In this document: piece by piece, positions 11,430-63,578 of the stretch
How the letters are laid out: each line of letters starts with the position of its first letter
Numbering within the stretch: the first letter of the stretch is position 1
Assembly (NCBI RefSeq): GCF_004010195.1
Contig: NC_057757.1
Span: 7,338,610 to 7,402,609 of the forward strand
Direction: 5' to 3'
DNA: 64,000 bases
Source of the DNA: Chiloscyllium plagiosum
Lineage: Eukaryota
Notes under the pieces: model-generated
Database searches by the model: none
Told to the model about the DNA's origin: nothing
The model's input: only the letters and a program-made list of their open reading frames with translations
Made by a program: the position numbers and the translations under genes

Positions 11430-12328
11430 CTATTTAATGAATTTTAAAAGTAGAGCATGGGGAAATTTCACCACATTCTTCAACTGTTCTCTGAACTTCG
11501 TCTGTGTCACAGCATAAATGCAAGTATTTGTGCAGCAACTCAGGAGCTGGAGCATGAAGCCAATTTCTTGCAGAAAGGTAGGCAGCATTACTGAATCATA
11601 CCCTAAATACATCATTCGCCACCATATTGTGTAGACCATCAATATTGACCAGAGGAGGATGAAATTCGCTGATATAACAAATAATAAGACCATGGATTTC
11701 CTTCGACTGTCCATCTCTGCATCTCTAGGAGTCTCCCCACTGCTGTGACTTCGGAGTCTCTTTCGGGCTCTGCTGCTCACTAAAATGTGTCTGACAGTCA
11801 AAGCATTGAGCAGCACAATCAGAACAAATGGGATGGCTGGTGTTATAATATGATGAAGGAACTCGATTATTGTCCAGACGGTTGATTTCATAACATCGGA
11901 TGTCATATAGCAAAACCAGGGAAAGTTCTGAAGCCAATACTCATTTGTGAGCATAAAATACCAAAAAATGTTCTTTAAACAGCTCAGCACTGTTACTGTT
12001 CCCACAACCACAGCCGCCATTTTCTCAGTGCAGTATTTACATTTCAACTGATGGCAACAAATGGCTACAAATCGATCAAAGGTGAAAGTGACTGTCAACC
12101 ACACAGAACAGTCTGTGACTGTATGAAGTAAGATGGCATGGATATTGCACACTTTAACGGAAAATAGGAAAAAGAACTGTTCCCGATAAACAATTGGAAT
12201 CTGCCTCAGTATCAGATCAAAGATAATGACCAGCAGATCTGCTGCTGCCATGGCCACGAGATAGCAGGTGATACATTTAGAGAGACCACACTTTCCTTGA
12301 GCAAGTATTGCAATTGTCACTAAATTAA
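11430..12328 (-). CDS. GPR139/GPR142-like class A GPCR, copy 1, exon 2 (spliced protein 361 aa)
   Basis: Acceptor ccttcctaacag|TTAATTTAGTG; ORF 11430..12320 contains YLVAMAAADLL, TFTFDRFVAIC, ITPAIPF and CCTNTCIYA; in frame with exon 1 across a phase-1 intron. Confidence 0.92.
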
Positions 12329-13370
12329 CTGTTAGGAAGGAGAATAAAAATGGAGGTTAGACCTCAGACTTTTCAAATCCTTACCAGCTCTGTTTAAATT
12401 TGACTAGTATAGTATTTGGGATGAAAAGACACCTGAGGAATAACAGGTTATAAGAAATCAAATAAAGTTCACTGCTGAACTGACAGTCACATGTGAATAT
12501 GAACATTGTTTGAGTGTTAAAACAAGAGAACTAATCCTCTGTTGGATCAAATCGTGACCTCAATATCTCTGGGATAATTTACATGCAAAACATGTTAAAA
12601 TGCTGATGCTTATTACCTTTCATCTGAGTGAATATTGGAAAATCAACCTCGCTAGTGAATTAACTCACGTGTGTATTAATTAATGTTTCACAGCCATGCA
12701 TAATTCAACTCAACTCCTGAGATGTGTCTGTAAGCGTTGGTCTATTTGATACTGAACATTTGTTGCCATTGGAGAATACAATATATATTTTTCCCAAACA
12801 CTAGGAGTTCAGTTGGAGAATGATGCAGTGACAAATAAATGTTTGTGTGATCAAACTTTACTGCAATGCTTCACATGAGTAGAGGAGTGAACTCCTGGAA
12901 CTAGGATTCAGCAGTAAGAGCGACAAACCCCAGGAGAGGAGACTGCATTTCAAATCATTGCTAATCAAGTATAAATTTGATTGTTTCCCAATAAAGGAAT
13001 TCAAAATTTTAATGTTTCTTCTATTTTATATAATCAATATGAGGTATTATGGCCTGTGTAAATATTGATCTTCCAATGTGTTTATCAGTAATTTCCAAAG
13101 TGTTTACCTATCATTTTATCTGGACTATTCATCTGGCAGTTGTGTATTGACACTTGGAAAACATTGGAACTACACAAATGAGGTTGATGTAATGTTGCGA
13201 CTGAAGGTTTAATTTGATAGTGAACAAACTTTAAAATGACAAATTCATATATTATCGTCGATTTTTGGCTTGCATTTTGATAACTAGTTGGGGCACTCAA
13301 TGATAAATGGCAATTCAGAAGAACAGTCAGGAATGGTTTATCGCGTTGAGAGCTGTCTGGAGAGACTTAC

Positions 13371-13557
13371 CTGGGACTCCAACAATAGCAAGGATTGGAT
13401 AGTATATGTACTGACTAATCCGAAGTGTGTAAAAGATTCGAGGTGCCAATGGTAGCCATTTGAAATATGTAGAAAGATAGTCAATCTCTGAGGAGAAACT
13501 CTTGCCCAGTGTTGTAAGATTCCAGTCTCCTGTTCCCAGATTCAGATTCAGCTCCAT
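13371..13557 (-). CDS. GPR139/GPR142-like GPCR, copy 1, exon 1
   Basis: ATG at 13557, reads MELNLN...IYYPILAIVGVP, donor CCAG|GTAAGT; 187 nt gives phase 1, matching exon 2. Confidence 0.85.
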
Positions 13558-13605
13558 TGTAACATTCTAATCCAATGTTTTCGGATTCCAATCTATTGTC
13601 TGTCA

Positions 13606-13636
<31 letters not shown>

Positions 13637-14409
13637 GCTGTCTCTGGGTCACGGATTCCTGCTGTGATGGATGTGATGCTCCTGCTGACATTTTGCAGAA
13701 CCGAAATAAAGACTTCTCTTAAAATAAGGAGGAAATCTCCTGAGGCTCAATTAGGGGCCATGGAGACTTGACTTTCAGTACAGCCTTTGAGCTGACAGTT
13801 CCAATTAACCCATTTCAATTCCACACATTATTTATCACAATAATCCAAAAGATGTGCTCACTCCTGATGGGATGCATGAGCTTTGTTGAGGAAAGAAAAC
13901 TTGGAAATCACATGGCACCAAATTTAACCTGGATATGGAAACCTTGTTCTGACCATTGCTGCCAACTATGACCTTCTACCTTTATATGGGCTTTGCCTCC
14001 CACAGCATATTTGTATTTAATGTGGCAATTGTTATGGTTACACTTTTGTGACATGACAACGAGGCACGGGTGATATGGTATTGAAATGATCAGCAGAGAT
14101 TTATTAATGATTGTGATAATATACAACTTTGCGTTTACATGCCAATCAGTGTTTGGGCTAACAGCTATTCAGTCACAAAGAGTGGAAAGATCTCAGTAGG
14201 TGAATCCTGGATGCAGAGATTCTTTTTCTTTCAGAAGGTAATGGACTCTTTGGAATTCCCTTTCTAAAAAGGCAGTGAAAGCAGAATCCTGAAATAGTTT
14301 TAAGGCAGAGGTAGTCAGATTGTTGATTATCAAATAGATGGTAGATTATCAGGCATGGTTTGCAGGCATGATTTGATTTGATTTGAGTTATTATTGTCAC
14401 GTCACCCAC

Positions 14410-20885: not shown

Positions 20886-20887
20886 GA

Positions 20888-21923: not shown

Positions 21924-21941
21924 TGGGGGCCCATCTGGGAT
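21924..21941 (+). promoter_or_regulatory. primer-binding site, tRNA-Pro type
   Basis: TGGGGGCCCATCTGGGAT matches TGGGGGCTCGTCCGGGAT at 15/18 and lies 3 nt after the LTR-terminal CA. Confidence 0.8.
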
Positions 21942-24468: not shown

Positions 24469-24559
24469 GTTGAAAAACTGGAGCAATTGTGTCATAAAGA
24501 ATACATGGAAGAAGAATTTAAGTGTATTCCTAACTGGTACTGTCTGAAAAATGATGTTT

Positions 24560-26775: not shown

Positions 26776-28777
26776 AGCCTAAATCAGCTTTCTGGGCCTT
26801 GTCATTGGATATACAATGACACAGAATGCCAAAATAAAGGAAACTGGGGAGTTTACCGTGCTATTGACAAAAAGAGCAGTACTACGATTCCCGGGATTGA
26901 ATGGGTTTTATCGGAAATTCATAGCAAATACTCGCAGAGTTCCAGCTCCACTCAAGGAATTACTAAAGAAAGGCAAGATGTTTCAGTGGACAGCAGATTA
27001 TGGGAAGGCATATGACAGCCTGAAGGCCATGTTAACCATTGCCCCAGTATTAGCCACACCTAATTACACAAACCTATTCAAGATATCTATCGGTGTGAGT
27101 GATGTGGGTGTCGGTGCTGTGCTCCTATGGGAAGATGACGAGAAATCAAACATTCATCATTGGAAATAATTGAAAGTTGAGCTTGGTGTTGGCATTACAA
27201 CATTTCAATGCTTATGTTACCAGTAATGTATCTGCGACAATCATATGCATTGATAATAATCTATTGAAGTTTGTAGAGAAATTTAAAGACAAAATCTAGA
27301 CTTGTTGTTACAGCCATTCAATTTGACAATTGTGCATGTGGCAGGGTGGGAAAATGTGATTGCCATCACATTGTCGAGACCTGGGTGAGGAATGGAGACA
27401 TATGGTGGTCGGAGTAAAACAGACTGAGACAGCATGTAGTAGCGCATGTTTGCATATTTACAGTCAATGTAATGTCTATGTGTTGTAGAGCACTAACAGT
27501 GTAAGATTAATGGGTTTTAAAATGAAGCCGCCTTTGGATATTCATGCTTCATTTTTTTAAAGGAGGGGGAGACCTGGAACAATTCTGCTCACTTAACAAG
27601 GTTATGTTTTCCTTAGATCTTTTTCAGAAGGGTCACAAAGTCAGAGGTTCCGAGATGTCTGGGAATGTCTACTTGAGAAAGCTTTCAAGTCTTTCTCTTA
27701 AAGCCCTTGTACAATGAAAGGGGAGCGGCAAGTTCTCCTAGTTCAGGGTTTGGTTTGGTTTTAGCAAGCAGTCTGTTTGAGGCAGCTGGTCAAAGAAACA
27801 GCTTCATGCTGATCCTCTCTCTCTCTGATATCTCTCCCATAAGAATCTGTGTTTGATTTTACCTTGTTGGTTTGCCAAAAGGCTGGTAATGAGGATGTTG
27901 CAAGTATTTGGAGCAGCGTCATTATGTTGCGAGAGAGTCGACTGGGTTTTCAGGTAGGTTAAGTTTTTCTAAATTTGGTTGTCTTTTGTTCCTGTTCAAT
28001 TCAGTAGTCTCCAAATAAATTCTGTTTGATTTAAAACTGAGTGGCTGGGCCAGCTGTATCACTTCTGGAATATCCAGTCTGCACCTGCTGGTAAAAACTA
28101 GCAAAGTTAGGATCTGGGTGAACTCCTTCCAATGTATTGTGGGAGTCTGGCCTTGTCCATGACACATACAGCAGGTTCAAAGGGCTGATTTTCCTACTCT
28201 TGTTCCTGTGTTCTATAATTTAAGGACCAGCAGCATGCAGAACATGAACAGCAGAAAAGCACGAATCACAGATTGCAACCCCCTCTTCCTTCGTCTGAGG
28301 GTGTGGTGCTGGGGAGAGGGAACATGCGACTTAGTTGTAATTGACATTGTTTTCCTCCCTCCCTCACGACACAGAAAATGTGGTGTTCCAATAATAAGGA
28401 CTGTAACCTTTGCAGAAAATAGCTCAGAAAATAACCCTCTAAAGCATAATTCATGACGGACAATCAATAATCTTTTTGTTAGACATGCTTGCGTACTTTT
28501 CCCAGACATGGGTGAGCAAGATTGATTGGAGTTGTGCTTACAAACATCATGAACAGACAAATTTATGAAATAGGAGCAGGCGTATCCCATCACCCTCGAG
28601 CCTGCTCCACCATTTTATAGGATCATAGCTTATCAGTTTGTGGATCAAATTCTGCATTTACAATTGATCTTTCATTTCCTTTGCTGTCGAGAAACCATCT
28701 ACCTTTGTTCCAAAAAGATTAAATAACAAACCCCCAACCTCATGACTGCCTACGGATCAGATCCAAAGCCCTTTCAC

Positions 28778-29072
28778 AGTGGCACAGTGGTTAGCACTGC
28801 TGCCTCACAGCACCAGGGTCCTGGGTTCGATTCCCGCCTGTCTGTGTGGAGTTTGTCCATTCTCCCCGGGTCTGCGTGGGTTTCCTCCAGGTGCTCCGGC
28901 TTCCTCCCACAATCCAAAGATGGGCAGGTCAGGTAAATTGGCCATGCTAAATTGCCCACAGTGTTAGTCAGGAGTAAATATAGGGTAGGGGGTGGGTTTC
29001 TCTTCGGAGGGGCGGTGTGGACTTGTTGGGCCGAAGGGCCTGTTTCCACACTGGAGAGAATCTAATCTAATC
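28778..29072 (+). mobile_element. HE1-type SINE
   Basis: gtggcacagtggttag, ggttcgattcc, aatctaatctaatc tail. Confidence 0.9.
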
Positions 29073-29933
29073 ACAACTATAGAGAGAACAACTATTCTCC
29101 TCCTCTCTTATAAGGGCGAGCCCTAAGTTTAAAACAGTACCCCTGCTCTGCCTCACCCCCATTCTTCACTGGCCCACAAGAGGAAACATCCTTTTGGTGT
29201 ACACCTTGTTAAACTGTTTCAGATCTTACATACTTTGAGTGATTTGACACATTTTATATCTGATCAGATCGATGTCACAAAGTAATATTGGGGTCATTAA
29301 TTTCCTATTCCATTTATGAAGAGATGGAGAGTTGCTTTGGGATTTCCCGTCTGAAGAACAAGAGCTACGTGTTGACCACGTGTTCACTCCGACCTGCAGA
29401 GCCATTGATCAGAATCCCAGCTGGTATTCTGTTTCATTCCCAGTTGCTTGCCCAATGCCTGGAAGAGCCTGAAATTTGTAAATCCCACTTGCCCAATTCA
29501 ACCGTAAAGTCAGCGGGAAAAGGCAGAATAAACAGGAAATAATACCTATTTCAGGCAGCTTCGATTGGTAAAGCAAAACTTACACTTTCAGACTGATGCT
29601 CAGTTATCAGCAGATTTTTACACACGTTCATACTATCTCCTTATCTCGATTGAAAGTGAGTGGCCCCACTCCCATTAACTCCACAGTAGAGATTAACAGC
29701 TTTCTCCATTTTATTTTCTGTGAATTAAGTTGGAATCTGTTTGAGCTCTTCACTTATGCATTTGTGTTTTTGGAGATCAATTCACGAATCGTCCACAGAG
29801 CAAGTCTTCCAGTAAATGAACTTTATGGACAAACATAATTAGACTGGAGACTCTATGATGCTGACTACATACGGTTCTCGTGTTCTTAATAACAGAACCT
29901 GAAGTGGAAGTTAGTCTTCATAGTTCAAAGACT

Positions 29934-31252
29934 TCAATCTGTCCCATGATTTACCAATTTGTTGGAAGGGCTTTTCATCACATTCTTCAGCTCTCTCTGA
30001 ATCTGACCTGAATCACAGCGTAGATGCATGTGTTGGTGCAGCATCTTCGCTACATGATCTGTGATAAAGCCAGGGCCTGTGTAAGAGGAGTAACATTGAG
30101 TGTGTGTAATTCATGCATAAATATTGTACACAACCCGGGTCACCCACAGCAACACAAAACTGTCTGATATGCTGAATAGCAAAATGATGGACTTCCTTCG
30201 GCTCTCCGTCTCCACATTCTCTCCATTTCTTTGACCACTGAGACCCCTACGGTTTTGACTGCTCACTAAAATTCACCTGACAGCATATTGACCAGCAAGA
30301 TCAGAAAGAATGGCAAACGAGGGGCTAAAATGTAGCTAATCATTCGAATACACCTCATGCAAGGGAAGTGAAGTAACTGGTTTTGTGGGTGCAACTTAAT
30401 GCAATATTCTCAATGATGTAAAGTGGCTCATATATAAACTCCAGGGATCCCAGCAAAGTCACATTCCCCAGAAATATTGCTGCAGTCTTCTCAGTCCAAA
30501 CCTTCTCATAGCAAATGGCTATAAATTGGTCAATGGTGAATGTGACTGTGGGCCAGACAGAAACCACTGTGGTGGCTGACCCCAAGGTAGAAAAAAAAGA
30601 CAGCAAATATTTGTCATTCTCATGAATGAACATGGTAAATAAATTGGAACAGTGATCCACAGTATGGCATCAAAGACAACGACAAGGAGATAGGCCATAG
30701 CCATTCCAGTCAGGTAAAGAGTCACACATTTGGAGAGATCACACTTTTCTTGGGATAGGATGACAATCACCACCAGGTTAACTGTGAGGGAAGAGAGTGA
30801 AATCGAAGCGAATATTTACAGATCATGCCCAGAGTCAAAGAATAACGTGACAGAACTAAAGCAAACTTTGCAGCTTTGTTGTTGCATGACAGGTGTAAAC
30901 TGAAATATTGAGTGCTTTCTGACAAATACTTGCTTGAACCACAATTAGGAATAACATGTGTTGGAATACATAACACAGGAATTGCAAAACGCATGCAGGT
31001 TTATGGTGCATCTTTATGGGTAAAATGAATTTCCTACAAGAGTGAAGGAGCAGACATAATCACAGCACTTAACTATCAGAATACTACCAGTATTTGTTTA
31101 AACTGCACAGTGATAAATAATTAGTCTTAAATAGCACTGTTAACATCAACTTTCACCAGGAACACTTGAAATAACAGCTTACCAGTAACGCTAATGGCTG
31201 AAATAAAAGGAAAGAAAATATCTTGTATTTGCCATACAATTGGATATGCCAT
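29934..31252 (-). pseudogene. GPR139/GPR142-like GPCR pseudogene, copy 2 (exon 1 31183-31252, exon 2 about 29934-30781)
   Basis: Exon 1 MAYPIVWQIQDIFFPFISAISVT G|GTAAG; acceptor ctcacag|TTAACCTG; exon 2 is broken into frameshifted pieces (YLTGMAMAYLL, TFTIDQFIAIC, CCTNTCIYA). Confidence 0.85.
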
Positions 31253-32464
31253 TTTTGCAAGTAGCAACAACTTGTGTTGTTCTGGGGGCACACAGACCTG
31301 GCAGGAACTGTGAACTAGTGCATTCTAATAGATCCTGATTTATGCAGAGGTTAAGTCCCCAGTGACATAGTTACACCTGACATCGCTATTAGTTACACTA
31401 ACTGGAACAGACACATGGCATCAACAGCTCTGACTATGAGGTGAATAACGTGTTGGACAAAACATATACATCTCAACAGTCAGGACCATATCTTAGTTCC
31501 ACCATAACACAATGATGCTAGAATGTGTGTGTAGAGAAAACTGATCTCACTAATAATGAACAGCTTCATTCACAGTTTGCCCATAAACCACGATCCTTCC
31601 TGCTTCAGTTAAATGAATTGTTGCTGCTCTGCAAGTTAGATTGAATCCAGCAATAAAGATTCATCCCATTTTGGAGATTGACATTAAAACCACGCACTTT
31701 AATTATCTAAGGACATTGGTGTCTGTCCATTCATTTGAGGGCAATGTTCACTTAACTGAGCTACAGATGTTTGGCTACATGGAGGAGGATGTCACATGCA
31801 TTGGTAGGATCTAGAAGTCAGTCTTTACTCTGCCTAGGACTTATTCACCAGGTGAAAAATTGCTGATGTCTAAATCCTAACTCTGAAACCCAAATCCACT
31901 GCCAATACATGATATTTGCGTGCAATTATTCAATTAATGCTCTACTACTCTAACCTTAACCCTAACACCAACTCTACACTGATGTCTGATTTGTACAATT
32001 AACACAGAAATGGAGCGTGCACTTTCCTTCTCTGTCACTTCAATAATGTATTGGAATCAAGGTTCAGTGTAATCTGAGCAGCAGATTTTTGCCACTTTGA
32101 TTTTTTTGAATTCTTGGACTTGGGCACGGCTGAATGGGTGCCCAATAAGTTATCATTATCCCTAAATGCCCTTTGAGAATGTGCTGGTGAGCTACTTTCT
32201 TGAACTAGTGCAGTCCATGTGCTGTAGGTAGAGCCACAATGCCATAAGGGAGGGACGTTTATGGCTTGGACCAGTAACACAGAAGGAATGGCTTTCAGTG
32301 TGGTAGCAACATTGAATGTCAAGGGGCAGTGGTTGGATGGACTGCTATTGGAGATGGTCATTGCCTGGCTTGTGGCGTATATACTAGTTTCCACCTCTTA
32401 GCCTAAATCAAAATGTGTGGCGCTGGAAAAGCACAACCAGTCAGGCAGCATCCGAGAAGGGGCA

Positions 32465-32497
32465 GAGTCGACGTTTCGGGCATAAGCCCTTCATCAG
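32465..32497 (-). ncRNA. minimal hammerhead ribozyme motif (Penelope-type)
   Basis: CUGAUGA-A-GGGC-UUAU-GCCC-GAAAC-GUC with intact core and stem II. Confidence 0.7.
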
Positions 32498-32934
32498 GAA
32501 TGTTGGGAGCTGGGGGCAAGGGTGGCTGAGAGATAAATGGGAGGTGAGTGGGGCTGGGGGAAGGTAGCTAGGAAGGCAAGACGTAGATGAAGGTGGGGAG
32601 TGCTGGTGATAGCTTGGAGCCGATAGTTCGGAAGGAAGATGGACAGGTAGGACAGTTCAAGAGGGCAGTGTCGAGTTGGATGGTTAGATCTGGGATAAGG
32701 TGGGGGGAAGGGGATATGAGGAAACTGGTGAAATCGACATTGATTCTGTGTGGTTGGAGGGTCCCAAGGTGGAAGATGAGGTGCTCTTCATCCAGGCATT
32801 GGGTGGCTAGGATTTGGTGGTGGAGGAGCTGTAGGACGTGGTAAAAACAATGACTGCAGATGCTGGAAACCAGAGTCTAGATTAGAGTGGTGCTGGAAAA
32901 GCACAGCAGTTCAGGCAGCATCCGAGGAGCAGTA

Positions 32935-32967
32935 AAATCGACGTTTCGGGCAAAAGCCCTTCATCAG
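32935..32967 (-). ncRNA. minimal hammerhead ribozyme motif, in a nested insertion about 32842-32970
   Basis: CUGAUGA-A-GGGC-UUUU-GCCC-GAAAC-GUC; GTAGGAC repeated on both flanks. Confidence 0.7.
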
Positions 32968-33815
32968 AAGGCGTAGGACTTGCATATCCTTGATGGAGTG
33001 AGGGGGGAGTTGAAGCAGTTGGCCGCAGGGTGGTGGAGTTGTTTGGTGCATGTGTCCCAGAGATGTTCTCAGAAATGTTCTGCGAGTTGATGTCTTGTCT
33101 CCCCAATGTAGAGGAGGCCACATCGAGAGCAACAGACACAGTTTATGAGGTGTTCAGATGTACAGGAAAGTCTCTGTCATATGTGGAAGGATCCTTGAGG
33201 CATTGGATGGCGATGAAGAGGGAGGTGTGGGCGCAGGTTTTACACTTCTTGCAGTGGAAAGGTAAAGTGTCGGGAGTGGAGGGTGGGTTGGTGGGTGGGG
33301 TGTGGTCCTAACGAGGGAATCACAGATATAATGGTCTCTGTGTAATGCGAAAAGGGGTGAAGACGAAAATATACCTCTGGCGATTGTAGGTGGCAGAAAT
33401 AGCAAAGGATGATGTTCTGTATCTGGTGGGCTGGTGAGGTGGAAGGTGAGGACTAGCGCTGTTGTTTACATCTTGGTTGCAGTAGGAAGGGTGGGGTTCA
33501 AGGGTGGAGGTGTAGGAAGTGGATGAGATGTGCTGGAGGGCATTGTTGATCACTTGGGAGGGAAAATTGCAGTCCTCGTAGTAGGATGCCATCTTAGATG
33601 TTCTAGAGTGGAATTGCTCCTCCTGGGAGCCGATATGGTGGAGGCAGAGGAATTGGGAGTAAGGGATATCATTTTTACAGGAGGGGGCGTGGGAGGAACT
33701 GTAGTTCAGATAGCTGTGGGAATCGGTGGCTTTAAAGTAGATGCCTGTGTTGAGCTGGTCTCCAGAAATGACAATGGAGAAGCACAGGAAGGGGGAGGGA
33801 AGTGTCTGGGATGGT

Positions 33816-34480
33816 CCAGGTGGACCATCCTGGATTTTGTCCAGAAGTTGTTGCAAAATACATGGACTGCTTCAGTATCTGAGGAGTTGTGAATGATGCT
33901 GAATCTTGTGCAATCATCATCAAACGACCCCGCTTCTGAACTTATGATCGACAGTGATTCATTGATGAAGCAGCTAAAGACGGGCAAGCCTACAACATTC
34001 CCCTGATGATCTCCTGCAGAGGTGTTCTGGAGCTGAGATAACTGGCCTTTAACAACCTCAAACCATCTTCCTATGTGCCAGATATGACTCCACCCAGTGG
34101 AGAGTTTTCCTCCTGATTGACTCCAGTTTTCCTTGGGCTCTTGTTGCCATACTCGGTCCAATACGACCTTGAGATCAAGAGCAGTCACTCTCATCTCACT
34201 CCCCATTAGTCAGTTCAGTGCATTTGTGCATTTGTGACCCAAAGCTGTAACGAGGTCAGGAGCAGACTGGTCCTGTAGGAACCCAATCTGGGCAGGTTAT
34301 GATTGAGTTGTTGCTTGATAGTACAGTTGATGACACTTTCTGTCACTTCATTCATAATTGAGAGTTAACTGATGGGGTAATAGTTGGCTGGGTTAGATTT
34401 CCTTACCTTTCATGTATGGGACATAGCTAGGCAATTTACTACTTTTATAGTTAGATGCCATTGTTGTACTGGAACACCTT
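33816..34480 (-). mobile_element. decayed CR1/L2-group LINE RT fragment
   Basis: ORF 33706..34206 ALDLKVVLDRVW...GLPVFSCFIN...FDDDCT. Confidence 0.7.
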
Positions 34481-34579
34481 GATTGTAACGTGTTGCTTAT
34501 TCTGTTTGTATTTTTAACCCTGTTTTGTTATTTCACCAGAGTATTGATTATTTGCCAGCTCTTCCCAGTCATGGACAAG

Positions 34580-35112
34580 TCAAGGTCATCAGTATGGGTT
34601 TGTTAAGGGAAAGTCAAGCCTTACGAGTTAGATTTCAAACTTTGAGGCAGTGACAAGGATATTGATGAGGGTAGTGCCATGGATGTTGTCCACGTGGAAT
34701 TTAGTGATGTCTTTGGCAAAGTCCCACATGGCAGACTAGTCAAAAATGTCAAAGCCCCAAATGGGACAAATTGGATCCAAAGTTGGCTCAGTAATAGGAT
34801 AGGAGAAAGTGAGGACTGCAGATGCTGGAGATCAGAGCTGAAAATGTGTTGCTGGAAAAGCGCAGCAGGTCAGGCAGCATCCAAGGAGCAGGAGAATCGA
34901 CGTTTCGGGCATGAGCCCTTCTTCAGGAATTCCTGAAGAAGGGCTCATGCCCGAAATGTCGATTCTCCTGCTCCTTGGATGCTGCCTGACCTGCTGCACT
35001 TTTCCAGCAACACATTTTCAGCTCAGTAATAGGATACAAAGGGGAGTCAATGGCTGCACTTGCGAATGGAGACCTGTCTAGAAAGTGTTCTGCAGGGCTT
35101 GGAGTTGGGTTT
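34580..35112 (+). mobile_element. decayed CR1 RT fragment, interrupted at 34802-35020
   Basis: MDVVHVEFSDVFGKVPHGRL..WIQSWLSNR. Confidence 0.7.
34802..35020. mobile_element. young palindromic Penelope-derived insertion with two back-to-back hammerhead motifs
   Basis: 16-bp TSD GCTCAGTAATAGGATA at 34786-34801 and 35021-35036; about 94-bp inverted arms centred on GGAA|TTCC (34929/34930). Confidence 0.9.
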
Positions 35113-35929
35113 CAAGGAGAGTTTTAGTGTCTTTAAGTTATTTTTATTATCTTCCCCTGATGGAAAAAAAAACACGTACATCTAAATACATTATGGGTTT
35201 ATGCCACGCTATGAATTTGGGTTCAAGACAGAGGCAGAAGAAGGGAAATTCGAGAACTGTTTGAATTAAAGATGAAATGATGGTTTAAATAACATAACCA
35301 ATTGATTCGATAATGGGAAACAGGACTGGTGTATTGCGATGTTATCATGCAGCAGGTTGGATGCACTGTTACTCCGAAAGCTTATGCGTAGTAGAGTTCA
35401 GAGGAGCTTTAAAGTTTGTGTTGATAATTTAAAATCCAGAGTTGCACTGAACTGATTTTGGTTTCTTTTTGCTCATAGACTTGTGGAAACCAAAAAAAGT
35501 GGATTATGGAATGTCAAAAAGGACTTGAGCAGGTGGTTCAGGATGGAACTGACAGGAGTATGCAAGAGACAAAGCAGGCAGAACAATGATTGAAAGCAGC
35601 TAACATCGGTGTGCCCTCAATATCAATGCTGCAAAAGCTTAGCTCCAAACAAGCTGATCCAAATTGCAGGAATTGAGATTGAGGATGGGACACTGAGCCT
35701 CACTGGCTGTGAGCTGAGAAGGAATTTCCCTGCAAGCTTGAAATCCCTTTTCTGTTATAAGCAATCATCGAACTAAAATGTGCTGCTGTATTTTGCTGGG
35801 CAAAGGAAGTCGCTAGCATAGACATTACAGTTTTTATTTTCCGCTCTCAGGCATGGAGAATGAGCTATTTATCAATGATTTTCTTTTTCCTTCTCTTACC
35901 TTTTATATACCGAACAAATACTCTTGCAA

Positions 35930-36990
35930 CCTATTTTATTATGAGCTCCCTTACTCTCATATTTCATTTTCTCCTATCTTATTGCTTTTCTAAATTATCT
36001 TCTGTTGGTTTTTAAAGGCTTCGCAAGCCTCTGCCTTCCCATTGATCGTCACCATATTGTATGCTTTTTCTTTTGCTATTACGCTGATCCTCATCCCTTA
36101 TGTTTGCCTCATCCGCCCCTTGATATGTTTCTTCTTTCTTGGGATAAATTTGTGTTGGTGGTGCTTCCTAAATTACTCACAGAAACTCCCTGCCATTAAT
36201 ACTCCACCTTCTTCGCTACTCGGCTCCCCTTCCCATCAATTCGTGTCTTTCTAGCTACCTTTACTTAATTGCCATTGCATTACATCTGATTCAAGATTGT
36301 CCCTCTCAGTCTGCATGGTGAATTCTACCATGTTATGGTCAACGCCCTCCGGAGGTTGGAGTGGTGTAGGAGGGGGTGTGGGTATGGGGGTTTGAGTTCC
36401 TTTACCTTCAACTCCCTAACCATATCTGCATATGACATGATGTTCAGTCCAGAGTTCCACGTGCCATGTTCCTTGTTCCACCACAAGCTGCTCCAAAAAG
36501 AAGTCATAGACATTCCACGAATTCCACAAATTTGCGATAAACTGTCAAACTGATTTTCCCTGTCCACCCTGTGTACTGAAGTCCCCATGATCACGGTGCT
36601 ACTCCCTTACTTACCTGCCTTTCTAACTTCATATTTATTTTCATCCCTACATCCTGACTGCTGCTGGGAGGCCTGTACACCACTCCCATCAGGGGCATTT
36701 CTCCACCGTGGTTCCTCAATTCAGCCCACAAAGATTCTAACCTATCTGACTCCATATCACTTCTTACTGATATAACATCACCTTTTAGTAACAAGGCAAT
36801 GCTGCACCCTCTGCCCTGTCCTCCCAATAATATGGATGTCCTTGAAAATTTCCTTCCCAGCCCAGATTCCCTTGCAGCCACATTTCTGGGATACCCACAG
36901 CATTGCCCCACCCAATTCCAATCTGTGCTACAGTCTCATTTTCCTTGCTTTGTGTGCCGTATGCATTTAAGGGCAACAGCCTCATTCCTG
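35930..36990 (-). mobile_element. old CR1 ORF2 endonuclease region
   Basis: ESLWAELRN..LMGVVYRPPSS (36591..36911) and LLPLNAYGTQSK..EMWLQ. Confidence 0.65.
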
Positions 36991-37969
36991 TGTTGACTAC
37001 GCCCCTTCTCTTGTTGTCCCCTTGTCTGCTGTCCCTGGAGTTTATTCTGTGTCCTAACACCTGTTCTGGAAATGCTCCTAAACTCTGCTGAGCACTCCAG
37101 CCTCGAACATTTTCCATAATGTTCCATGCAAAAGAAGCGCCCTTCCCATTACTATTTAGCTTCAAGCCTAATCCACAGATAAAGTGATGTGATTCGCATG
37201 GACTCTGTTTCCAGCATGATTCAGGATAAGCTTTTAGCTCAAATGGGTGAGCACCTGATGAAAGGCTACGGGCCTCACTCTTTACATAGGACTCATGAAG
37301 ATAATAGTGTATTTCTGGTAGTGTGGACTTGATGGGCTGAAGCGTCTCTTTTGTGCTGCATGATTCAATAATCTCAATCCTAAATGTCATCCTCCTTATT
37401 TTTAGAAGGTGCTCCCTGGTTGTAGACTCCTGAAGCAGGTAAAACATCATTACCCTGCATTCACTCGACATCCTCCGCCTGGTCTATTTCTTGAACCAGT
37501 TTGGAACTTTCCCTGAAATTATCTCACATTCACAAAACTTGAGAAAATACAGACTTGGTTTATACAAATTCCCTTCGTAGGACAGTCTCACCATCCCAGG
37601 AATAATTCTGGCGAACGAAAAAGTGAAAAGTCAAGATTGAAGGGATTACTTACCCTTGTCTCAGTCACATCACAAATCACTTGCAGTTTTGGCAAGTTAA
37701 TACGAGTGGGGTGTAAACGTGAAGGGTTTGGGGCATTGATACACACGTTCCAGGTGGGATTTGAGAGGGGAAAATGCCCTCTGATAATCTGAGGGACACT
37801 GAAGATGTGGTCATACATTGGAGTGGCAAAACTGGTAATAAATCATTTTCATAGAATAACAGGAGAGAGAGGCAAAAAGTAAAGAGGAGATTTATTGACA
37901 AAATCTGCAAAGATGTGGATGATGAAGAGATTTATTTGCATTTATTTGTGAAAATGCCAATCAATTGCG

Positions 37970-38290
37970 AGTGGCACAATGGTTCAGTGATGTGCGCTGC
38001 TGCATCAGCAGACCAAAGACCCAGGTTCGATTCCACTTGAGGTGACTGTATCAGTATAGGTTTTGCATTCTCCCTGTATCTGCGTGTGTTTCCTCCCACA
38101 GTCCAATGATGAAAGGATTGATGAATTGGCCATGTTTAAGTTGCCCTTGGTGTCCAGGAATGTATAGGTTGGGTTGCAGAGGTCATGGGAGGTGTAGGGT
38201 TATTGAGTAAGAGGATAGGTCTGGTTGGGATGCTCTTCAGCATGTTGGTAGTTTGAATGGCTTGCTAACACTCTGTAGGGTGTCTATGGT
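37970..38290 (+). mobile_element. decayed HE1-type SINE
   Basis: gtggcacaatggttc, ggttcgattcc, tttcctcccacagtcca. Confidence 0.7.
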
Positions 38291-38768
38291 AATCTTTAGC
38301 TCTGCATCTGTGTGTTTCCTGTGCTTAGACCAGGCTTGATCCCTCACTCAGTGTGCCATTATCCTGCCTAAGACTCTTGACCCTGTCCAGATATCAACCC
38401 ACCCCCTCAACTCCCTCAGGGTTGAGGAAATGTAGAAAGCAGACTGATCCAAATGTATCAAAGACATTATTGATAAACATCAAATTACACAAGAACATTT
38501 CCAGTCTCTGCATGATTTTGATTTCTGATGGGAAAGTATATTTCTTCATTGACTCGACCTGGAAATTCAAACAGTGCAGGTGGGGTAGAGATTGTGGGTG
38601 CTGTTCCTTTTTTCTCTCCAGCAGGGGTCATCATGCTCTCATTTCCATTCAGTCCTCCAGCCAACACCTCTTGTCCAATGGCACACTGCTCTTTCACTTG
38701 TGTCTATTGGAAATCTGGGACATTCAAGGACTGGAAAAAAGAAAGTGGCCCCCACCTCTGGGTGCATC

Positions 38769-39679
38769 TCAGTTATTTTGCTTATTAAGTAACTGAATGA
38801 TCAATGTAACTGGATATTTCATCGCGCTTTCCAGCTGCTCTCTGAACCTTGACTGTGTGACTGCATAAATGAATGTGTTTGTGCAGCAACTCATATTCCG
38901 CAGCATAAACCCAACTTGTTGAAGTATATATTCAGAATCATTGTAATCTCCGGGATAAGTTCCTGTTTTGATATAGTATAAGAAATCTATGATATTTACC
39001 AACCAAAGAAGGATGAAGCTACCAGAAATGGTGAACAGTAAAATGATAGACTTCCTTCTACTCTCTATCTCTGGGTCTCTTTGATCCTCTGCCATGCTCC
39101 GACCCCTCAGTCCCTTACGGATCCGATTGGTCACTAAAATGTGTCTGATGGTCAAACAGTTGAATAACAAAATCAAAGCGAATGCGAGAAATGGGGTTAA
39201 AATTGTATCAAACCAGTCAAAACCCAGCCACCCAGGGTCTGTATAATAACTTGACTTTGGGTGACAGTCCCAGGATACATTATTGATTATCCATCCAGGT
39301 TGAAGGATAAAGTAGAATGGGACATTTTTTAAACAGAGTATGGTGCAGGTTGTTGCTAGAACCACAGTTGCAATTTTCCTAGTACAATATTTTCTTTTCA
39401 GTTTCTGGCAACAAATGGCCACAAATCTATCAGAGGAGAAAGTGACGGTGAACCAGACAGAATAGTCTGTCGCTGCTCGATACAGGGCATAAGTAACGCT
39501 ACACACAGGGGTGAGGTCCAGGAAGGTTCCCAGGAAATAATAGTATTTCATCCGCCGCAGTATGACCTCAGTGATCATGACTAGGAGATCTGCCATTGCC
39601 ATGGCCACCAGATAGCGAGTGGTGCAGATTGAGAGGCCACATGTTCGCCTGGACAGGATCACAACTGCAATCAAATTAA
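38769..39679 (-). CDS. GPR139/GPR142-like GPCR, copy 3, exon 2 (spliced protein 325 aa)
   Basis: Acceptor ttccttgcag|TTAATTTG; ORF contains YLVAMAMADLL, TFSSDRFVAIC and CCTNTFIYA; the first ~38 aa of the track ORF 38769..39794 are intronic. Confidence 0.92.
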
Positions 39680-40420
39680 CTGCAAGGAAGAGTAGGGAAA
39701 AGAGACTGGAAATTAATCGATTAAATATTCTGTTCAGCCAGACAGGGGCACCACACCAAACAAATGTATGTGCCAGGTTCAATGCATGTACCAAAAATGA
39801 AAATGTGTTAACCTAATCACAGTCCCAGCTCCATCTCACTGACAGTTAGGTTTAATAGAGTCAGGACGCAGGTTAATAGGCAACGTCTCCCATTGAGGCC
39901 AGTTATGAATTTAAATATCTGAAATGGGTTTAATCTCTTAAATGGGTTTAACTTTTCTTCATTTGAACAGGCAGGTCTGTTGGGTTTCCAAGAAGTTTTT
40001 AAAATTTTCACTGGATGGAGATGAAGAGAGGTCCCTGGAGAAGATGAGCCACTTCAGAGTAATACTTGCAGTCGAGGAAATTCTCCCCACTGTTCCCCAT
40101 CCGAATCTGCCCATGGACTGTCAGACACACTGATACAGAGTACACCAATTTGGTGCAAGGGATCTCACAGATTCGACAACTTCCCTCTCTCACCCACATA
40201 AAAGTCAGATAACGTAAATTGGAAAGTTGCAAAGTAGAGATATATTTTCGTTGAGACCATTACTTTTAACAAGGGGAAGGGAAAAATAATGAATGATGGA
40301 CTGATTGAGCACCTATAGAGTGGCAAGCATTAAATAAGCGCACATCGACATCAGTCAGAGTAATACCAAAGAACAGTTCACAGCCCAGTTTAAACAACGT
40401 CCACAGGTACAGTCACTCAC

Positions 40421-40487
40421 CAGGAACTCCAATGACAGCAAGGATCAGGTAATATATTTTAGCAACGCTGGAAAATGTTTCACGCAT
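40421..40487 (-). CDS. GPR139/GPR142-like GPCR, copy 3, exon 1
   Basis: MRETFSSVAKIYYLILAVIGVP then G|GTGAGT; 67 nt gives phase 1. Confidence 0.85.
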
Positions 40488-40570: not shown

Positions 40571-40576
40571 TTTATA
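40571..40576 (-). promoter_or_regulatory. candidate TATA box of GPCR copy 3
   Basis: TATAAA on the minus strand about 85 nt upstream of the ATG. Confidence 0.4.
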
Positions 40577-41770: not shown

Positions 41771-41859
41771 TGTATTTTTCTATCTGTTTAAGAGTGAGAT
41801 TTATTGAGAGCTAGAGCAAAGAGAAAAGCCTTTGGTGTATCACATCACGCCCATCAGAA

Positions 41860-57893: not shown

Positions 57894-58484
57894 GGTAGGA
57901 AAGAGTGAGATATACTTCGGGTCAATGTGACAAAGGGCATGAGAGGACGAAGATGGATGATCAGGCAAGACCATTTTGAATGGGGTAGCAGGTTCAAAAA
58001 GGGCCGAATGTCCTCCTACTGCTCCTATGCTCTACAGGTTAAGGGCCAGCAGCATGCAGAGCAAGAAAAGTCAGCCAGCACAGACTACAGATTCTTGCCC
58101 CCACTTCCTTCCTCTGGCGAGTAGGTGTGGAGTGGGTGGGGATGGGGGAGGGGGAACATACGATTGGGTCATAATTAACATTGTTTTCCCCCCCCTCCCT
58201 CATGACATGGAAAAAGTGGTGTCCCTATTATATGGACTGTAACCTTTCAACAAAATGGCTTAGTACTCTAAAGGACAATAAATGATCTCCTTGCTATAAA
58301 TGCACGCGTAAATTTACTAAGACGTGGGTGACAAATTTGGAGTACTTTAGGCTTATAATCATCGACAAACAAACACATAGAACATAGAACATAGAAGAAT
58401 ACAGCGCAGTACAGGCATCCCACCCCACCCCCTCCCCACCCCCTCCCCACCCCCAAAGTCTGTTCTGCCGTTTGGTCAGATCAT

Positions 58485-58614
58485 TCTGAAGAAGGGTTAC
58501 ACCTGAAACGTGGACTTGTGCACCTCCTGATGCTGCCTAGCTTGCTGTGTTCTTCCAGCCTCCTACCTATCCACTTTAGATTCCAGCATCTGCAGGGTTT
58601 TTTTTTTGTTTCTA
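58485..58614 (+). mobile_element. Penelope-derived repeat with hammerhead-like motif
   Basis: CTGAAGA-A-GGGT-TAC-ACCT-GAAAC; TSD-like TTTGGT[C/A]AGATCAT at 58471-58484 and 58615-58628. Confidence 0.7.
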
Positions 58615-59908
58615 TTTGGTAAGATCATAGCTTATCTGTTTGTGCTTCACATTCTCAGTTTACCTTTTATTTCCTTTGCAGTCAACAAATCTTTCTAACT
58701 GTTGCTCGAAGAAGATTCTATGACAAACCCCCAACCACACAATCGCCTCCTGATCAGATCGAATTGTGTGCATAACCATCAGTGAAAACAAAAATTGGCC
58801 CCTCTCTTAAATTTTTAAACAGTGTCCTGCAGCAACACCCAACTGCTCATTCTGCACTGACGCAAGACAAAATGTCCTTTCCATGTGCACCTTGTTAAAC
58901 TATTTTGGATCTGATGTGCTTTGAGTGATTTGACACATTTTGCTTCGGCTCAGAGCCACATTAGAAAGGTACATTAGGGAGCATTCATTTCTTAGAGGAG
59001 AAAGTGAGGACTGCAGATGCTGGAGATCAGAAAAGGTACATTAGGGAGCATTCATTTCTTAGTCTATTTATGGAAAGATGAAGAGGTGGTTTTGTATTTC
59101 TCATCTTAACAGTGAGGACTGCGACTGACCATATCTTCTCTCTGAACTGCAGAGCCATTGATCAGGATCATAGCTGATGTTCTATCCCATTGCCACATGC
59201 CTGCCCATTGCCTGGAAAAGCCCTGGACTGAATTGAAATTCTGATCTCGCGGCAATCCAGTTCCACTATAAAATCTACAGGTAAGGCAGGAAAAGTGGGA
59301 AATACCTGCCATTTCAGATAGCATTGATTTGGAAAAAAAGAGTCAGCTTTTCAGACTGATGTCAGTCATCCGCACTTTATTACAAATCTTATCTCTGATC
59401 AAATTGAGAGCCCCCGCTCCCATTAGTTCCACAGTAGAGATTGGTGGGTTTCTCCATAATTATTTTTCTTTGGGTTTTGTTGGAACTGAACTGAGCTTTT
59501 GAGTTACACATTTTTGTTTTTTGGAGATCAGTTCATGAATTGCAGCATCTGCAGTTTTTTTTTGCCTCTATTTGGTAAGATCATAGCTTATCTGTTTTTA
59601 TATTCTAACGTCCCAGTTTACCTTTCATTTCCTTTGCAGACAAATCTTTCTAACTGTTGCTCGAAAAATATTCAGTGGCAAACCCTCAACCACACAATCG
59701 CCTCCTGACCAGATCAAAGTGTGCACAACCATCAGTGAAAACAGAAATTGGCCCCTCTCTGTAATTTTAAAACAGTGCCCCACCACAACACCCAACCGAA
59801 GAGCAAGCATTAAATTAAGTCAATTTTTTGAATGCACTGAATCAGACGGACTGAGCATGCACTTTCCTCGCCTCTGGCAATGGTAGGGTATGGAATGTGA
59901 GCTGGTAT

Positions 59909-60490
59909 TTAGTTCTCAGATTTCAAACCCTTCAATCTGTTGCAAGATTTAATGATTCGCTTCATCGAATTCTTCAGCTCATCTCTAAACTTAGCCTGGA
60001 TCACAGCGTAAACGCATGTGTTTGAACAGGAGCTGAGCACCTGCAGCATCTTGGCTTTGGAATCTGTGATAAAGCCAGGGTCATTGTAGGAGGAGTAATA
60101 TCGGGTGTGTGTAAATATTGCACGCAACCTGGGTCACCCACACATCACAAAACTGCCTGATATACTGAAGAGCAAAATGATGGACTTCCATTGCTTCTCC
60201 ATCTCTGCATCCTTGTGTTTCTCTCCAATTCTTTGCCCACGGAGACCCCTGCAGATTTGACTGCTCACTAAAACACGCCTGACAGCACATTGAATAGCAT
60301 GAAGAAAGAATGGCACACAAGGGGTTAAAATGTAGTTGATCATTTCAAAGGCAGCCCACGCAGGGGAAGTGAAAGAAGTGGATTTATGGATCCAACCCCT
60401 TGGAATATTGTCCATAATGTACCGTGGCTCATATATAAAGTACCAGGGTAGAGATTCCAATTCCCAGAAATACTGCTGCAGTTTTTCTCA
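59909..60490 (-). pseudogene. GPR139/GPR142-like GPCR pseudogene, copy 4 (5' half deleted)
   Basis: ESLPWYFIYEP..YILTPCVPF..KSIILLFSISGSF and SCSNTCVYAV lie in different frames; upstream sequence jumps to the homolog of about 31610. Confidence 0.85.
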
Positions 60491-60827
60491 TTGCAAAACT
60501 TTGTTTTCACCTTGCTGCTTAAATGAATTATTGCTACTCTGCAAGGTAAACTGAATCCAGAGACACAGATTAATTCTCTTGCTGGAGATTCCCATTAAAA
60601 TCGCAAACTTTGATACTCTAAGGGCATTGGCATCTGTCCTTCTGTTTGAGGACAATGCCCACTGAACTGAGCTGCAGATGTTTGGTTGCATGGAGCAGGA
60701 TATTGCTTAATTTGATGGGAACTATAGAGTTAAACGTCTGACAGTCAGTTCGGGAAGGAAATGTTTAGAAGTCAGTCTTTGCTCATCTTAGGATTTATTC
60801 GCGAGGTGAAGAATTATTGACCTATTT

Positions 60828-61143
60828 TGGGGCTGCACGGTGGCTCAGCTACCTCACAGCACCAGGGTCCCGGTTCGATTCCAGCTTTGGGCCAGTATCT
60901 GTATGGAATTTCCACGTTCTCCCCGGGTCTGGGTGGGTTTCCTCAAGTTTCCTCCCACAGTCCAACGATGTGCAGGTCAGGTGAATTGGCCATGCTAAAT
61001 TGCCTGCAGTGATAGGTGCATTAGTCAAGGGTTAATATAGGGGAATGGGTCAACTTGGGTTGCCCTTCAGCGGGTCGGTGTGGACTTGCTGGGCCTAAGG
61101 ACCTGTTTCCACACTGTAGGGAATCTAATCTAATCTAATCAAT
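60828..61143 (+). mobile_element. HE1-type SINE
   Basis: ggttcgattcc B box, ggtgaattggccatgctaaattgcc, (aatct)n tail. Confidence 0.85.
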
Positions 61144-61914
61144 CACTTTTAATAACGCAGCAATCCTGCACCCTCTGCCTATCCTCCCTACAGTATGGAT
61201 ATCCTTGAAAATTTCCTTCCCAGCCCAGATTCCCTTGCAGCCACATTTCTGGGATACCCACAGCATTGCCCCACCCAATTCCAATCTATGCTACAATCTC
61301 ATTTTCCTTGCTTTGTGTGCCGTATGCATTTAAGTGCAACAGCCTCATTCCTGTGTTGACTACGCCCCTTCTCTTGTTGTCCCCTTGTCTGCTGTCCCTG
61401 AAGTTTACTCGGTGTCCTAACACCTGTTCTGGAAATGCTCCTAAACTCTGCTGAGCACTCCAACCTCGAACATTTTCCATAATGTTCCATGCAACTGAAG
61501 GCCCCTTCCCATTACTATTTAGCTTCAAGCCCTATCCACAGATAAAGTGATGTGATTCGCATGGACTCTGTTTCCAGCATGATTCAGGATAAGCTATTGA
61601 GCTCGGATGGGTCAGCACCCGATGGAATGTTTCAACATTCAAGGCTACAGGCCTCACTTGGTACATGAGACTCAATTGATGGGCTGAAGGGCCACTTTTG
61701 TGCTGCATGATTGCATAACCACAATCCTAAATGTCATCCTCCTTATTTTTAGAAGGGTGCTCCCTGGTTGTAGACTCCTGAGGCAGGTAAAACATCATTA
61801 CCCTGCATTCACCCGACATCCACCGCCTGGTCTATTTCTTGAACTATTTTGGAACTTTCCCTGAAATTATCTCCCATTCATGAAACTCGAGAGATTACAG
61901 GCTTGGTTTATACT

Positions 61915-62182
61915 GGTGCTTCAGAGGGCCAGAAACCTAGTTTCGATTCCAGCATGTGACGACTGTCTCTGTGCAGTGTGCACGTTCTCCCCGTGTCCAC
62001 GTGTGTTTCTTCCCACAGTCAAATGATGAATTAGCCATGCTTTGGTATCCATGGATGGATAGGTTGGGTGCAGAGGTCATGGGAGGTATAGGCTTATTGG
62101 ATAAGTGGGTGGGATGCTCTTCAGAGAGTCGGTGTGAACTTTTGGGTCGAATGGCCTGTTACACACGGTAGGGATTCTATGG
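61915..62182 (+). mobile_element. decayed HE1-type SINE, paralogous to 37970-38290
   Basis: Shared gggtgcagaggtcatgggaggt and the same 3' flank. Confidence 0.65.
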
Positions 62183-62574
62183 TTTTCTTCAGCTCAGGAT
62201 CTGTGTATCTCCTGTGCTAAGACCAGCTTTGAACCCTCACTCAGTGTCCCATAATCCTGCCTGAGACTCTTGACCCTGTCCAGACATCAACCACCACCCC
62301 CCAACTCCCTCAGGGGAAATGTAGACAGCAGACTGATCCAAAATGTATCAAAGACATTTTTGATAAACATCAAATTACACAAGAGCGTTTCCAGTCTCTG
62401 CATGATTTTGATTTCTTTTGGGAAAGTTTATTTCTTCATTGACCAGAGCTGGAAATGTAAACAGTGCAGGCGGGGTTGAGATTGTGGCTGCTGTTCCTTG
62501 TCCTCCCCAGCAGGGGTCATCATGCTCCCATTTCCATCTAGTGCTCCAGCCAACAGCTCTTGTCCAATGGCACA

Positions 62575-63578
62575 CTACTGTTTCACTTGTGTCTGTTGGG
62601 AGTCTGGTGTAGCTATTACATTGAAGGACTGGGAAAAAATAAAAATGGTCCCCATCGCTATGTGCCTCTTAGCTATTTTGCTTCTTAAGTAACTGAATGA
62701 TCCAGTAACCGGATATTTCATTGTGCTTTCGAGCTGCTCTCTGAACCTAGACTGTGTGACTGCATAAATGAATGTGTTTGTGCAGCAACTCATATTCCGC
62801 AGCATAAACCCAACTTGTTGAAGTATATATTCAGAATCATTGTAATCTCCGGGATAAGTTGCTGTTATAATATAGTATAAGAAATCTATGACATTTACTA
62901 ACCAAAGAACAATGAAGCTGCCGGAAATGGTGAACAGTAAAATGATAGACTTCCTTCTACTCTCTATCTCTGGGTCTCTTTGATTCTCTGCCTTGCTTTG
63001 ACCCCTCAGTCCCTTACGGATCCGATTGGTCACTAAAATGTGTCTGATGGTCAAACAGTTGAATAACAAAATCAAAGCGAATGCGAGAAATGGGGTTAAA
63101 ATTGTATCAAACCAGTCAAAACCCAGCCACCCAGGGTCTGTATAATAACTTGACTTTGGGTAACAGTCCCAGGGTACATTATTGATTATCCATCCAGGTT
63201 GAAGGATAAAGTAGAATGGGACATTTTTTAAACAGAGTAAGATGTAGATTGTTGCTAGAACTACAGATGCAGTTTTTCTAGTGCAATATTTTCTTTTCAG
63301 CTTTTGGCAACAAATGGCTACAAATCTATCAAAGGAGAAAGCGATGGTGAACCAGACAGAATAGTCCGTTGCTGCTCGAAGCAGGACATAATTAACACTA
63401 CACACAGCGGTTAGGTCCAGGAAGGTTCCTGGGAAGTAATAGTAATTGATCCGCCACAGTATGACCTCAGCAATAATGACCAGGAGATCTGCCATTGCCA
63501 TGGCCAGCAGATAGCGAGTGGTGCAGATCGAGAGGCCACATGTTCTCCTGGATAGTATCACAATTGCAATCAAGTTAA
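62575..63578 (-). CDS. GPR139/GPR142-like GPCR, copy 5, exon 2 (exon 1 beyond the window; C-tail frameshift-extended)
   Basis: Acceptor ttccttgcag|TTAACTTG; open frame through all remaining TM helices (AFSFDRFVAIC, CCTNTFIYA); close paralog of copy 3. Confidence 0.85.

Follow-up and report, generated by a model that had tools for sequence, protein, structure and literature searches.

A Chiloscyllium plagiosum receptor array and a possible chemosensory repertoire of class A G-protein-coupled receptors in cartilaginous fishes

What kind of receptor is encoded by a tandem gene array of the shark Chiloscyllium plagiosum, and could such an array belong to a chemosensory repertoire? The stretch of DNA analysed here (the window, 64,000 nt of NC_057757.1) carries the array within positions 11430 to 63578, and tblastn together with a family hidden Markov model (HMM) run over the window identified five receptor copies, all on the minus strand and all class A G-protein-coupled receptors (GPCRs), with no sixth copy found by either method. 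An earlier interpretation of the DNA letters, here called the sequence-only reading, had described five same-strand copies related to GPR139 and GPR142, falling into three subtypes (copy 1; copies 2/4; copies 3/5) and including two pseudogenes. The number and orientation of the copies were borne out, as were the pseudogenes, copies 2 and 4 being broken, and the subtypes were confirmed by pairwise identities: at the amino acid level copy 1 was 46% identical to copy 3 and 48% to copy 5, copies 3 and 5 were 89% identical to each other, and copies 2 and 4 shared 73% nucleotide identity across 630 bases. The best reading would be that of a repertoire of sensors that share a single output and respond to many external ligands, probably of a peptide-like nature, and a probability of about 45% is assigned to the proposal that this chondrichthyan class A multigene family works as a chemosensory repertoire. 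The findings new to this analysis are a sister gene in bony vertebrates, a rate pattern reversed against it, and what appear to be two modes of diversification.

Family identity, size and relatives

The window proteins are class A (rhodopsin-like) GPCRs. For all three of the copies searched, 7tm_1 was the only Pfam match at E<=0.001 (61-73 bits against a cut-off of 30.5), and no match at this threshold was obtained with the family-specific Pfam profiles of the OR, V1R, V2R and T2R families, nor between PF10324 (Srw) and the window proteins. The class A motifs D2.50, D/E-R-Y/F, W6.48 and N7.49xxxY7.53 were present. Moreover, the structural model of copy 3 exon 2 (pLDDT, the predicted local distance difference test, of 92) displayed the seven-helix fold with a beta-hairpin in the second extracellular loop (ECL2) and reached a TM-score of about 0.7 against class A structures. 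The predicted fold is peptide-receptor-like, the closest structures being mostly peptide receptors with tied scores (Z 24.3-25.4) and GPR139 ranking 10th by Foldseek.

The family is large and widespread among cartilaginous fishes. Searches of database clusters at 90% identity (E<=0.001, with the best 120 matches of each search listed) returned 1951 clusters for copy 5 and 2385 for copy 1, and among the best 120 of each every species-named match came from a shark or a ray. By hand count, the horn shark supplied 76 of the 120 for copy 5 and 67 of the 120 for copy 1, spread over many long contigs; since the two sets do not overlap, a single species accounts for at least 143 different clusters, in two subfamilies. 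The closest match to copy 5 was from Chiloscyllium punctatum (91% identical). At 50% identity, 133 representatives scored E<=1e-30, and the 18 looked up among the 46 treated as chondrichthyan corresponded to 17 sharks or rays and one chimaera, Callorhinchus. In a tree of 77 rows, copy 1, copies 3/5 and copy 4 fell into three separate subfamilies together with genes of other species (support of 100, 99 and 96, respectively). The array therefore combines old subfamilies in a mosaic, to which a single local duplication of a cassette was added, and the idea that the three subtypes arose entirely in place was rejected. The lineage-specific expansion proposed earlier thus stands as an expansion but not as a local or species-level one, since it spans sharks, rays and a chimaera. 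Its description as an uncharacterised birth-and-death repertoire with the variation pattern of a sensor family is supported by the family size and by the rate data given below; the family is large and clustered and contains pseudogenes, as chemoreceptor repertoires do.

Four sequencing runs were aligned to window positions 37200-40800 at 80% likeness. In DNA run X1, exon 2 of copy 3 presented depths of 490-2400, with one bin of 151,546, against 17-40 in the unique flanks, in line with many paralogues, although such summed depth is no copy number. The same run covered the intron of copy 3, where 773 bases showed 3 differences, and could itself represent the source sample. At positions 39378-39498, in the third transmembrane helix (TM3) of copy 3, the summed contig depth in X1 was about 150,000 against 17-40 in the flanks, from more than 100 contigs; this excess reflects either a receptor fragment inside a high-copy repeat or thousands of gene fragments. 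In some RNA reads, a TM3 piece of the copy-1 type ran on into unrelated sequence rich in GC.

Members of the family are automatically annotated in databases as "probable GPR139". A family with well over 100 members per genome, obscured by so misleading a label, would alter the GPCR count regardless of what it senses. No published description of the family was found in the literature searched, which was open-access and left subscription journals mostly outside its coverage; gpr139 had no mention in the main text of a catshark study (10.1101/2022.11.27.518102), and in the accessible part of PMC12294341 the mention of GPR139 was confined to the reference list.

The relationship to GPR139 and GPR142, two class A orphans that respond to L-Trp and L-Phe, is more distant than the automatic name implies. 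One family profile scored 188 bits with the salamander protein, 182 with the coelacanth, 164 with the teleost, 120 with the amphioxus, 99-104 with unnamed invertebrate-type receptors and 65.7 with human GPR139. Orthology with GPR139/142 was rejected, given that human GPR139 scored below invertebrate receptors and that Arg6.51 was lost. The label "GPR139/142-like" was right insofar as GPR139 is the nearest named human protein, but another gene, as yet without a name and retained in amphibians and sturgeon, is the sister. GPR139 gave the best sequence match among solved structures (E 2.8e-10, or 3.5e-17 with a profile) and was the top PDB match for three relatives as well, no characterised invertebrate member being in the tree; W6.48, N7.49, Y7.53 and a non-proline 7.50 are also common to both sides. 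On the other hand, the family is about 20% identical to GPR139 in the structural alignment, has very many copies and, across 58 diverse shark rows, has lost P6.50 in 51, carries an acidic residue at 3.37 in 52 and keeps the C3.25-ECL2 cysteine pair (55 of 58 for each cysteine), GPR139 having no Cys at 3.25 in the alignment.

The binding site differs as well. The basic residue R244 at position 6.51 is critical for GPR139 activation (PMC8807744), and the Trp/Phe site of GPR139 and GPR142 comprises F3x33, H5x43, W6x48 and N7x38 (PMC5430874). At these last four positions copy 1 carries H, H, W and F and copies 3/5 carry R, D, W and F; R6.51, F3.33 and N7x38 are absent from copies 1, 3 and 5, and H5x43 is found only in copy 1. 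Position 6.51 is occupied by L, N and N in copies 1, 3 and 5, and by K in 4 of the 58 shark rows. The absence of NPxxY from TM7, highlighted by the sequence-only reading and matched by T7.50 in 50 of the 58 rows, is no departure from GPR139, which itself has F at 7.50 (PMC8807744); the missing proline is thus probably a trait of the wider group, and its status as a novelty was rejected.

The sister gene was recovered with support of 96 in the 77-row tree. A mixture-model tree of 43 rows, 34 of the 77 having been omitted for speed, gave 97/89 for the chondrichthyan clade and 100/99 for its pairing with the amphibian and sturgeon gene; both trees were built without GPR139 and GPR142, for which no usable sequence record was retrieved. 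The proteins of this gene (P0226 and P0290-P0309), from salamanders, frogs, a caecilian and sturgeon, are distinct from GPR139 in spite of being labelled "probable GPR139"; examples are XP_069092602.1 of Pleurodeles and its Xenopus, caecilian and Acipenser orthologues. A salamander query returned 25 matches, of which 20 were amphibian (one cluster per genus), one was from sturgeon at 46% and four were from sharks or skates at 32-33%, in a search that needs shared words and so does not imply absence from other lineages. The gene is apparently a conserved single copy in amphibians and sturgeon. It shares the motifs of the three intracellular loops (ICL1, ICL2 and ICL3) with the window copies, to which it is 28-31% identical, but differs from them by N at 2.50 and by an invariant pocket (K6.51, F3.33, W6.48, P6.50 and N7.39) nearer the GPR139 pattern. 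The basic 6.51 is kept in all 21 amphibian rows, in sturgeon, in 5 of 5 other bony-vertebrate relatives and in 3 of 3 amphioxus-type rows. The idea that the family exists only in cartilaginous fishes was rejected for the lineage and is true just for the expansion. No published function was found for the sister gene, in literature searches that were not aimed at it. Being apparently single-copy and present in Xenopus, it lends itself to work on the ancestral ligand and supplies an internal control for tests of selection. Two further "GPR139-like" orphan lineages (P0230, P0235 and P0258; P0255 and P0266), from coelacanth, teleosts and a caecilian, possess R6.51 and lack W6.48, and represent more hidden vertebrate paralogues.

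Among invertebrate receptors, nematode srw and the FMRFamide/MIP/SPR-like receptors probably belong to the same broad group, and neighbouring Atlas clusters carry PF10324 on 17-50% of their members, which is a lead. The srw chemoreceptors of nematodes derived from peptide receptors (PMC3963977); the shark family differs from all of these as an independent vertebrate expansion.

Variation on the outer and inner faces

Site rates were obtained on copy 3 numbering for four sets, namely the 58 diverse rows, 120 rows of the copy-3/5 subfamily, 120 rows of the copy-1 subfamily and 21 amphibian orthologues. The ratio of extracellular loops to intracellular loops plus helix 8 was 1.99 in the diverse set, 3.26 in the copy-3/5 subfamily and 5.65 in the copy-1 subfamily (p<=2e-7); in the amphibian orthologues the ratio was 0.43 (p 0.001). 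Ligand-pocket sites were compared with other outer-helix sites by means of two lists, a generic one of 26 sites and one of 16 GPR139 contact sites, with helix numbering assigned here and both lists applied after the column table had been seen. With the 26-site list the ratio was 1.64 in the diverse set (p 0.02), 2.19 in the copy-3/5 subfamily (p 0.012) and 0.39 in amphibians (p 0.004). With the 16 contact sites it was 2.01 (p 0.0001), 2.84 (p 0.0003) and 0.35 (p 0.026), respectively, and 1.37 in the copy-1 subfamily (p 0.65).

Two modes of diversification appear from these alignments, one in the deep pocket (copy-3/5 subfamily) and the other in the surface loops (copy-1 subfamily). In the former, variation falls on the deep pocket positions 2.61, 3.29, 3.32, 6.51 and 7.39 and on ECL2. 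In the latter, about 15 sites of saturated rate lie on ECL1-3, 6.58 and 7.32 and are rich in W, Y, R, E and D; in addition, 48 of 119 models of this subfamily carry one to four copies of an N-terminal glycosylation unit. This unit consists of 14 residues with an N-glycosylation sequon and varies in number (P0340, P0341, P0375, P0376, P0407 and P0443), copy 1 having one.

Vertebrate receptor families such as OR, TAAR, V1R, V2R and FPR/MRGPR are clustered, evolve by birth and death, and combine a variable ligand face with a constant inner face. The same features were measured here for the shark family, which differs in being of other ancestry and in having one phase-1 intron in TM1. A hypervariable pocket with a conserved G-protein face was seen across subfamilies and within the copy-3/5 subfamily, but not for the deep pocket of the copy-1 subfamily, which varies its surface loops instead.

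Proposed function and competing explanations

A chemosensory repertoire could have arisen as follows. One receptor of the ancestral jawed vertebrate, from the peptide-receptor group that also holds GPR139 and with a GPR139-like basic pocket, would have stayed single and fixed in its pocket in amphibians and sturgeon. In cartilaginous fishes, tandem and cassette duplication would have multiplied it into a large set, gene loss and gene conversion acting alongside, and its G-protein face would have remained near constant while the ligand face diversified. The fixed inner face suggests one G-protein route and the diversified outer face many ligands, so that numerous external ligands, differing between copies and most likely peptides or derivatives of amino acids, would feed one output in sensory cells of the nose, skin, gill or gut. 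The copy-1 and copy-3/5 subfamilies may well differ in role. Precedents are provided by the srw chemoreceptors of nematodes and by mammalian FPRs, which serve both immunity and the vomeronasal organ (PMC12294341).

Several observations weigh against this proposal. The tied structural matches speak for a class A fold rather than for a type of ligand. The copy-1 subfamily keeps its pocket conserved (ratio of 0.48, p 0.023, with the 26-site list over 120 rows), and a small-odorant model does not fit a conserved deep pocket. The site rates are protein-only, and faster change may express relaxed constraint rather than positive selection. In the catshark, olfactory neurons are reported to be Go/TRPC2 microvillous cells with robust V2R expression (10.1101/2022.11.27.518102), and the nose may therefore have no use for another family. 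Finally, in X5, a single-cell RNA run with no tissue label of which about 2% was read, none of the 127 aligned reads was at least 99% alike to copy 3 and none fell on exon 1. Only distant paralogues were seen in this run; about 48 reads with 41 starts matched ICL3-TM6 of one of them, and their loose ends continued in frame with WMPY at 6.48-6.51 by hand translation. These reads were antisense as second mates, and whether they represent sense RNA depends on the library chemistry. Run X7, guessed to be RNA, yielded paralogue contigs of 1114 and 3415 bases. The question is directly testable with existing shark tissue RNA sequencing.

A bolder form of the proposal is tentative, with the odds against it: the family might be a fifth major vertebrate olfactory or chemosensory family, the largest in sharks, rays and chimaeras, of independent origin from a peptide-receptor gene that is single-copy in amphibians and sturgeon, in which one subfamily would owe its tuning to the deep pocket and another to surface loops that resemble those of antibodies. 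Cartilaginous fishes are described as having a small olfactory repertoire despite large noses, and in the catshark the 34 V2Rs form the largest olfactory family, with 4-9 genes in each other family (10.1101/2022.11.27.518102); a whale shark preprint reports a "relative paucity" of GPCRs in the group (10.1101/685743). If true, the bolder proposal would overturn both the view of a few dozen V2Rs serving smell and that of GPCR poverty in cartilaginous fishes.

The family might instead constitute an immune sensor repertoire, in which GPCRs of leukocytes or barrier cells would detect microbial or parasite peptides and proteins, like mammalian FPRs and MRGPRs. This is a doubtful possibility. The pattern of the copy-1 subfamily, whose pocket is kept while ECL1-3, 6.58 and 7.32 vary and the glycosylation unit is repeated, would fit ligands of large size or an evolutionary arms race. 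MAS1 and related receptors are reportedly missing from sharks (10.1101/685743), and the distant paralogue represented by 48 reads and 41 starts came from single-cell RNA, though without a tissue label and with an uncertain strand meaning. The hypervariable pocket of the copy-3/5 subfamily, also seen across subfamilies, nevertheless looks more odorant-type.

Largely neutral amplification is improbable. Under it, unequal crossing-over and duplication of transposon-rich cassettes in slow-evolving genomes would have left most copies silent or redundant, the outer-face variation reflecting relaxed constraint. Two of the five window copies are pseudogenes, retroelement remains abound in the region, copy 3 was not seen in X5, and a normal short exon 1 is present in no more than 56 of the 120 database models, a possible sign that few of them rest on RNA. 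Against these stand the ratio of nonsynonymous to synonymous divergence (dN/dS) of 0.30 between copies 3 and 5, an inner face near-invariant over at least three deep subfamilies that distantly related sharks, rays and a chimaera have in common, and the concentration of variation on particular sites of the pocket or loops, which are not the same from one subfamily to another.

A role as receptors for diversified own peptides (pheromonal, reproductive or neuroendocrine), near the ancestral SPR/MIP-R/FMRFamide-receptor role, is likewise unlikely, since receptors for endogenous ligands tend to have a conserved pocket, which is also the case in the amphibian sister gene, and no expanded peptide family is known to match. 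In its favour, the wider group binds aromatic neuropeptides (PMC12208981), and the shark family retains both the ECL2 hairpin and the cysteine pair C3.25-ECL2 (each cysteine in 55 of 58 rows).

Gene models, cassettes and repeats in the window

Four copies share the phase-1 acceptor CAG/TTAA (V-N-L) reported by the sequence-only reading, at 12328, 30781, 39679 and 63578; the short pattern matched a fifth time at 24043, with no receptor sequence behind it. The introns of copies 1 and 3 are GT-AG, phase-1 and inside TM1. The claim of a short TM1 exon was valid for copies 2 (70 nt) and 3 (67 nt) but not for copy 1, whose exon 1 measures 187 nt. The intact copy 1 is spliced from exon 1 (13371..13557, minus strand, as are all receptor features given here; 62 codons plus 1 base, exon-1 HMM E 4e-7) and exon 2 (11430..12328) into a 361-aa product, exon 1 encoding a long N-terminus with an N-glycosylation sequon followed by the first half of TM1. 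The likewise intact copy 3 combines exon 1 (40421..40487; exon-1 HMM E 4e-13) and exon 2 (38769..39679) into 325 aa. Copy 5 exon 2 (62575..63578) is open across all helices, with exon 1 lying off the window, and a 2-nt deletion near 62730, past helix 8, leaves it with an altered and extended C-tail. Regarding the pseudogenes, copy 2 (exon 1 at 31183..31252 and exon 2 at 29949..30781) presents several frameshifts and stops, its spliced frame stopping after 110 aa, and copy 4 (59945..60518) retains TM4-TM7 only, with one frameshift and one internal stop. The TM4-TM7 part of copy 4 is fused directly to sequence homologous to the region upstream of copy 2, which indicates deletion from exon 1 to TM3 and accounts for the lack of an acceptor. 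A putative TATA box of copy 3 lies at 40571..40576, 89 nt upstream of the ATG, and a CATAAA element lies 92 nt upstream of the copy 2 ATG; in copy 1, by contrast, no TATA-like element occurs within 400 bases. A tetranucleotide microsatellite (13597-13633) lies 40 bases upstream of the copy 1 start codon.

Copies 2 and 3 and copies 4 and 5 are two versions of one cassette, the sole local duplication here. By self-blastn, the first cassette, comprising copies 2 and 3 with their flanks (28170..40102), is homologous in patches to the second, comprising copies 4 and 5 with theirs (57987..63990; homology to 57987-63990), the flanks being 85-87% alike around copies 3/5 and 70-75% around copies 2/4. 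Over 290 codons, copies 3 and 5 differ by a dN of 0.049 and a dS of 0.165, and the resulting dN/dS of 0.30 indicates that they have been maintained as proteins. They share an identical tract of 162 nt (39101..39262, minus strand; 53 unchanged codons, permutation p 0.00015), which is probably due to gene conversion.

The duplicated segments 3353-8078 and 21353-26582 (with an RNase H-like piece to 27166), 83-87% alike, were rejected as receptor cassettes, being decayed copies of one family of long terminal repeat (LTR) retrotransposons. An assembly gap of ~500 N occupies about 2850-3350, and an Rfam search gave 0 matches. Decayed purine-rich tandem arrays occur at 44043-44337 (period 24/74/145) and 41380-41800 (period about 20); the 24-bp array is 3.6 kb and the 20-bp one 1 kb upstream of copy 3, with no counterpart above copies 1 or 2, and the two showed no mutual likeness by blastn. 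Between the cassettes, a broken non-LTR retrotransposon (44718-48457, minus strand) carries N-terminal Cys/His motifs and a reverse transcriptase (Pfam RVT_1), and its C-terminal part, matched in the Atlas by unnamed entries, resembles a restriction-like endonuclease.

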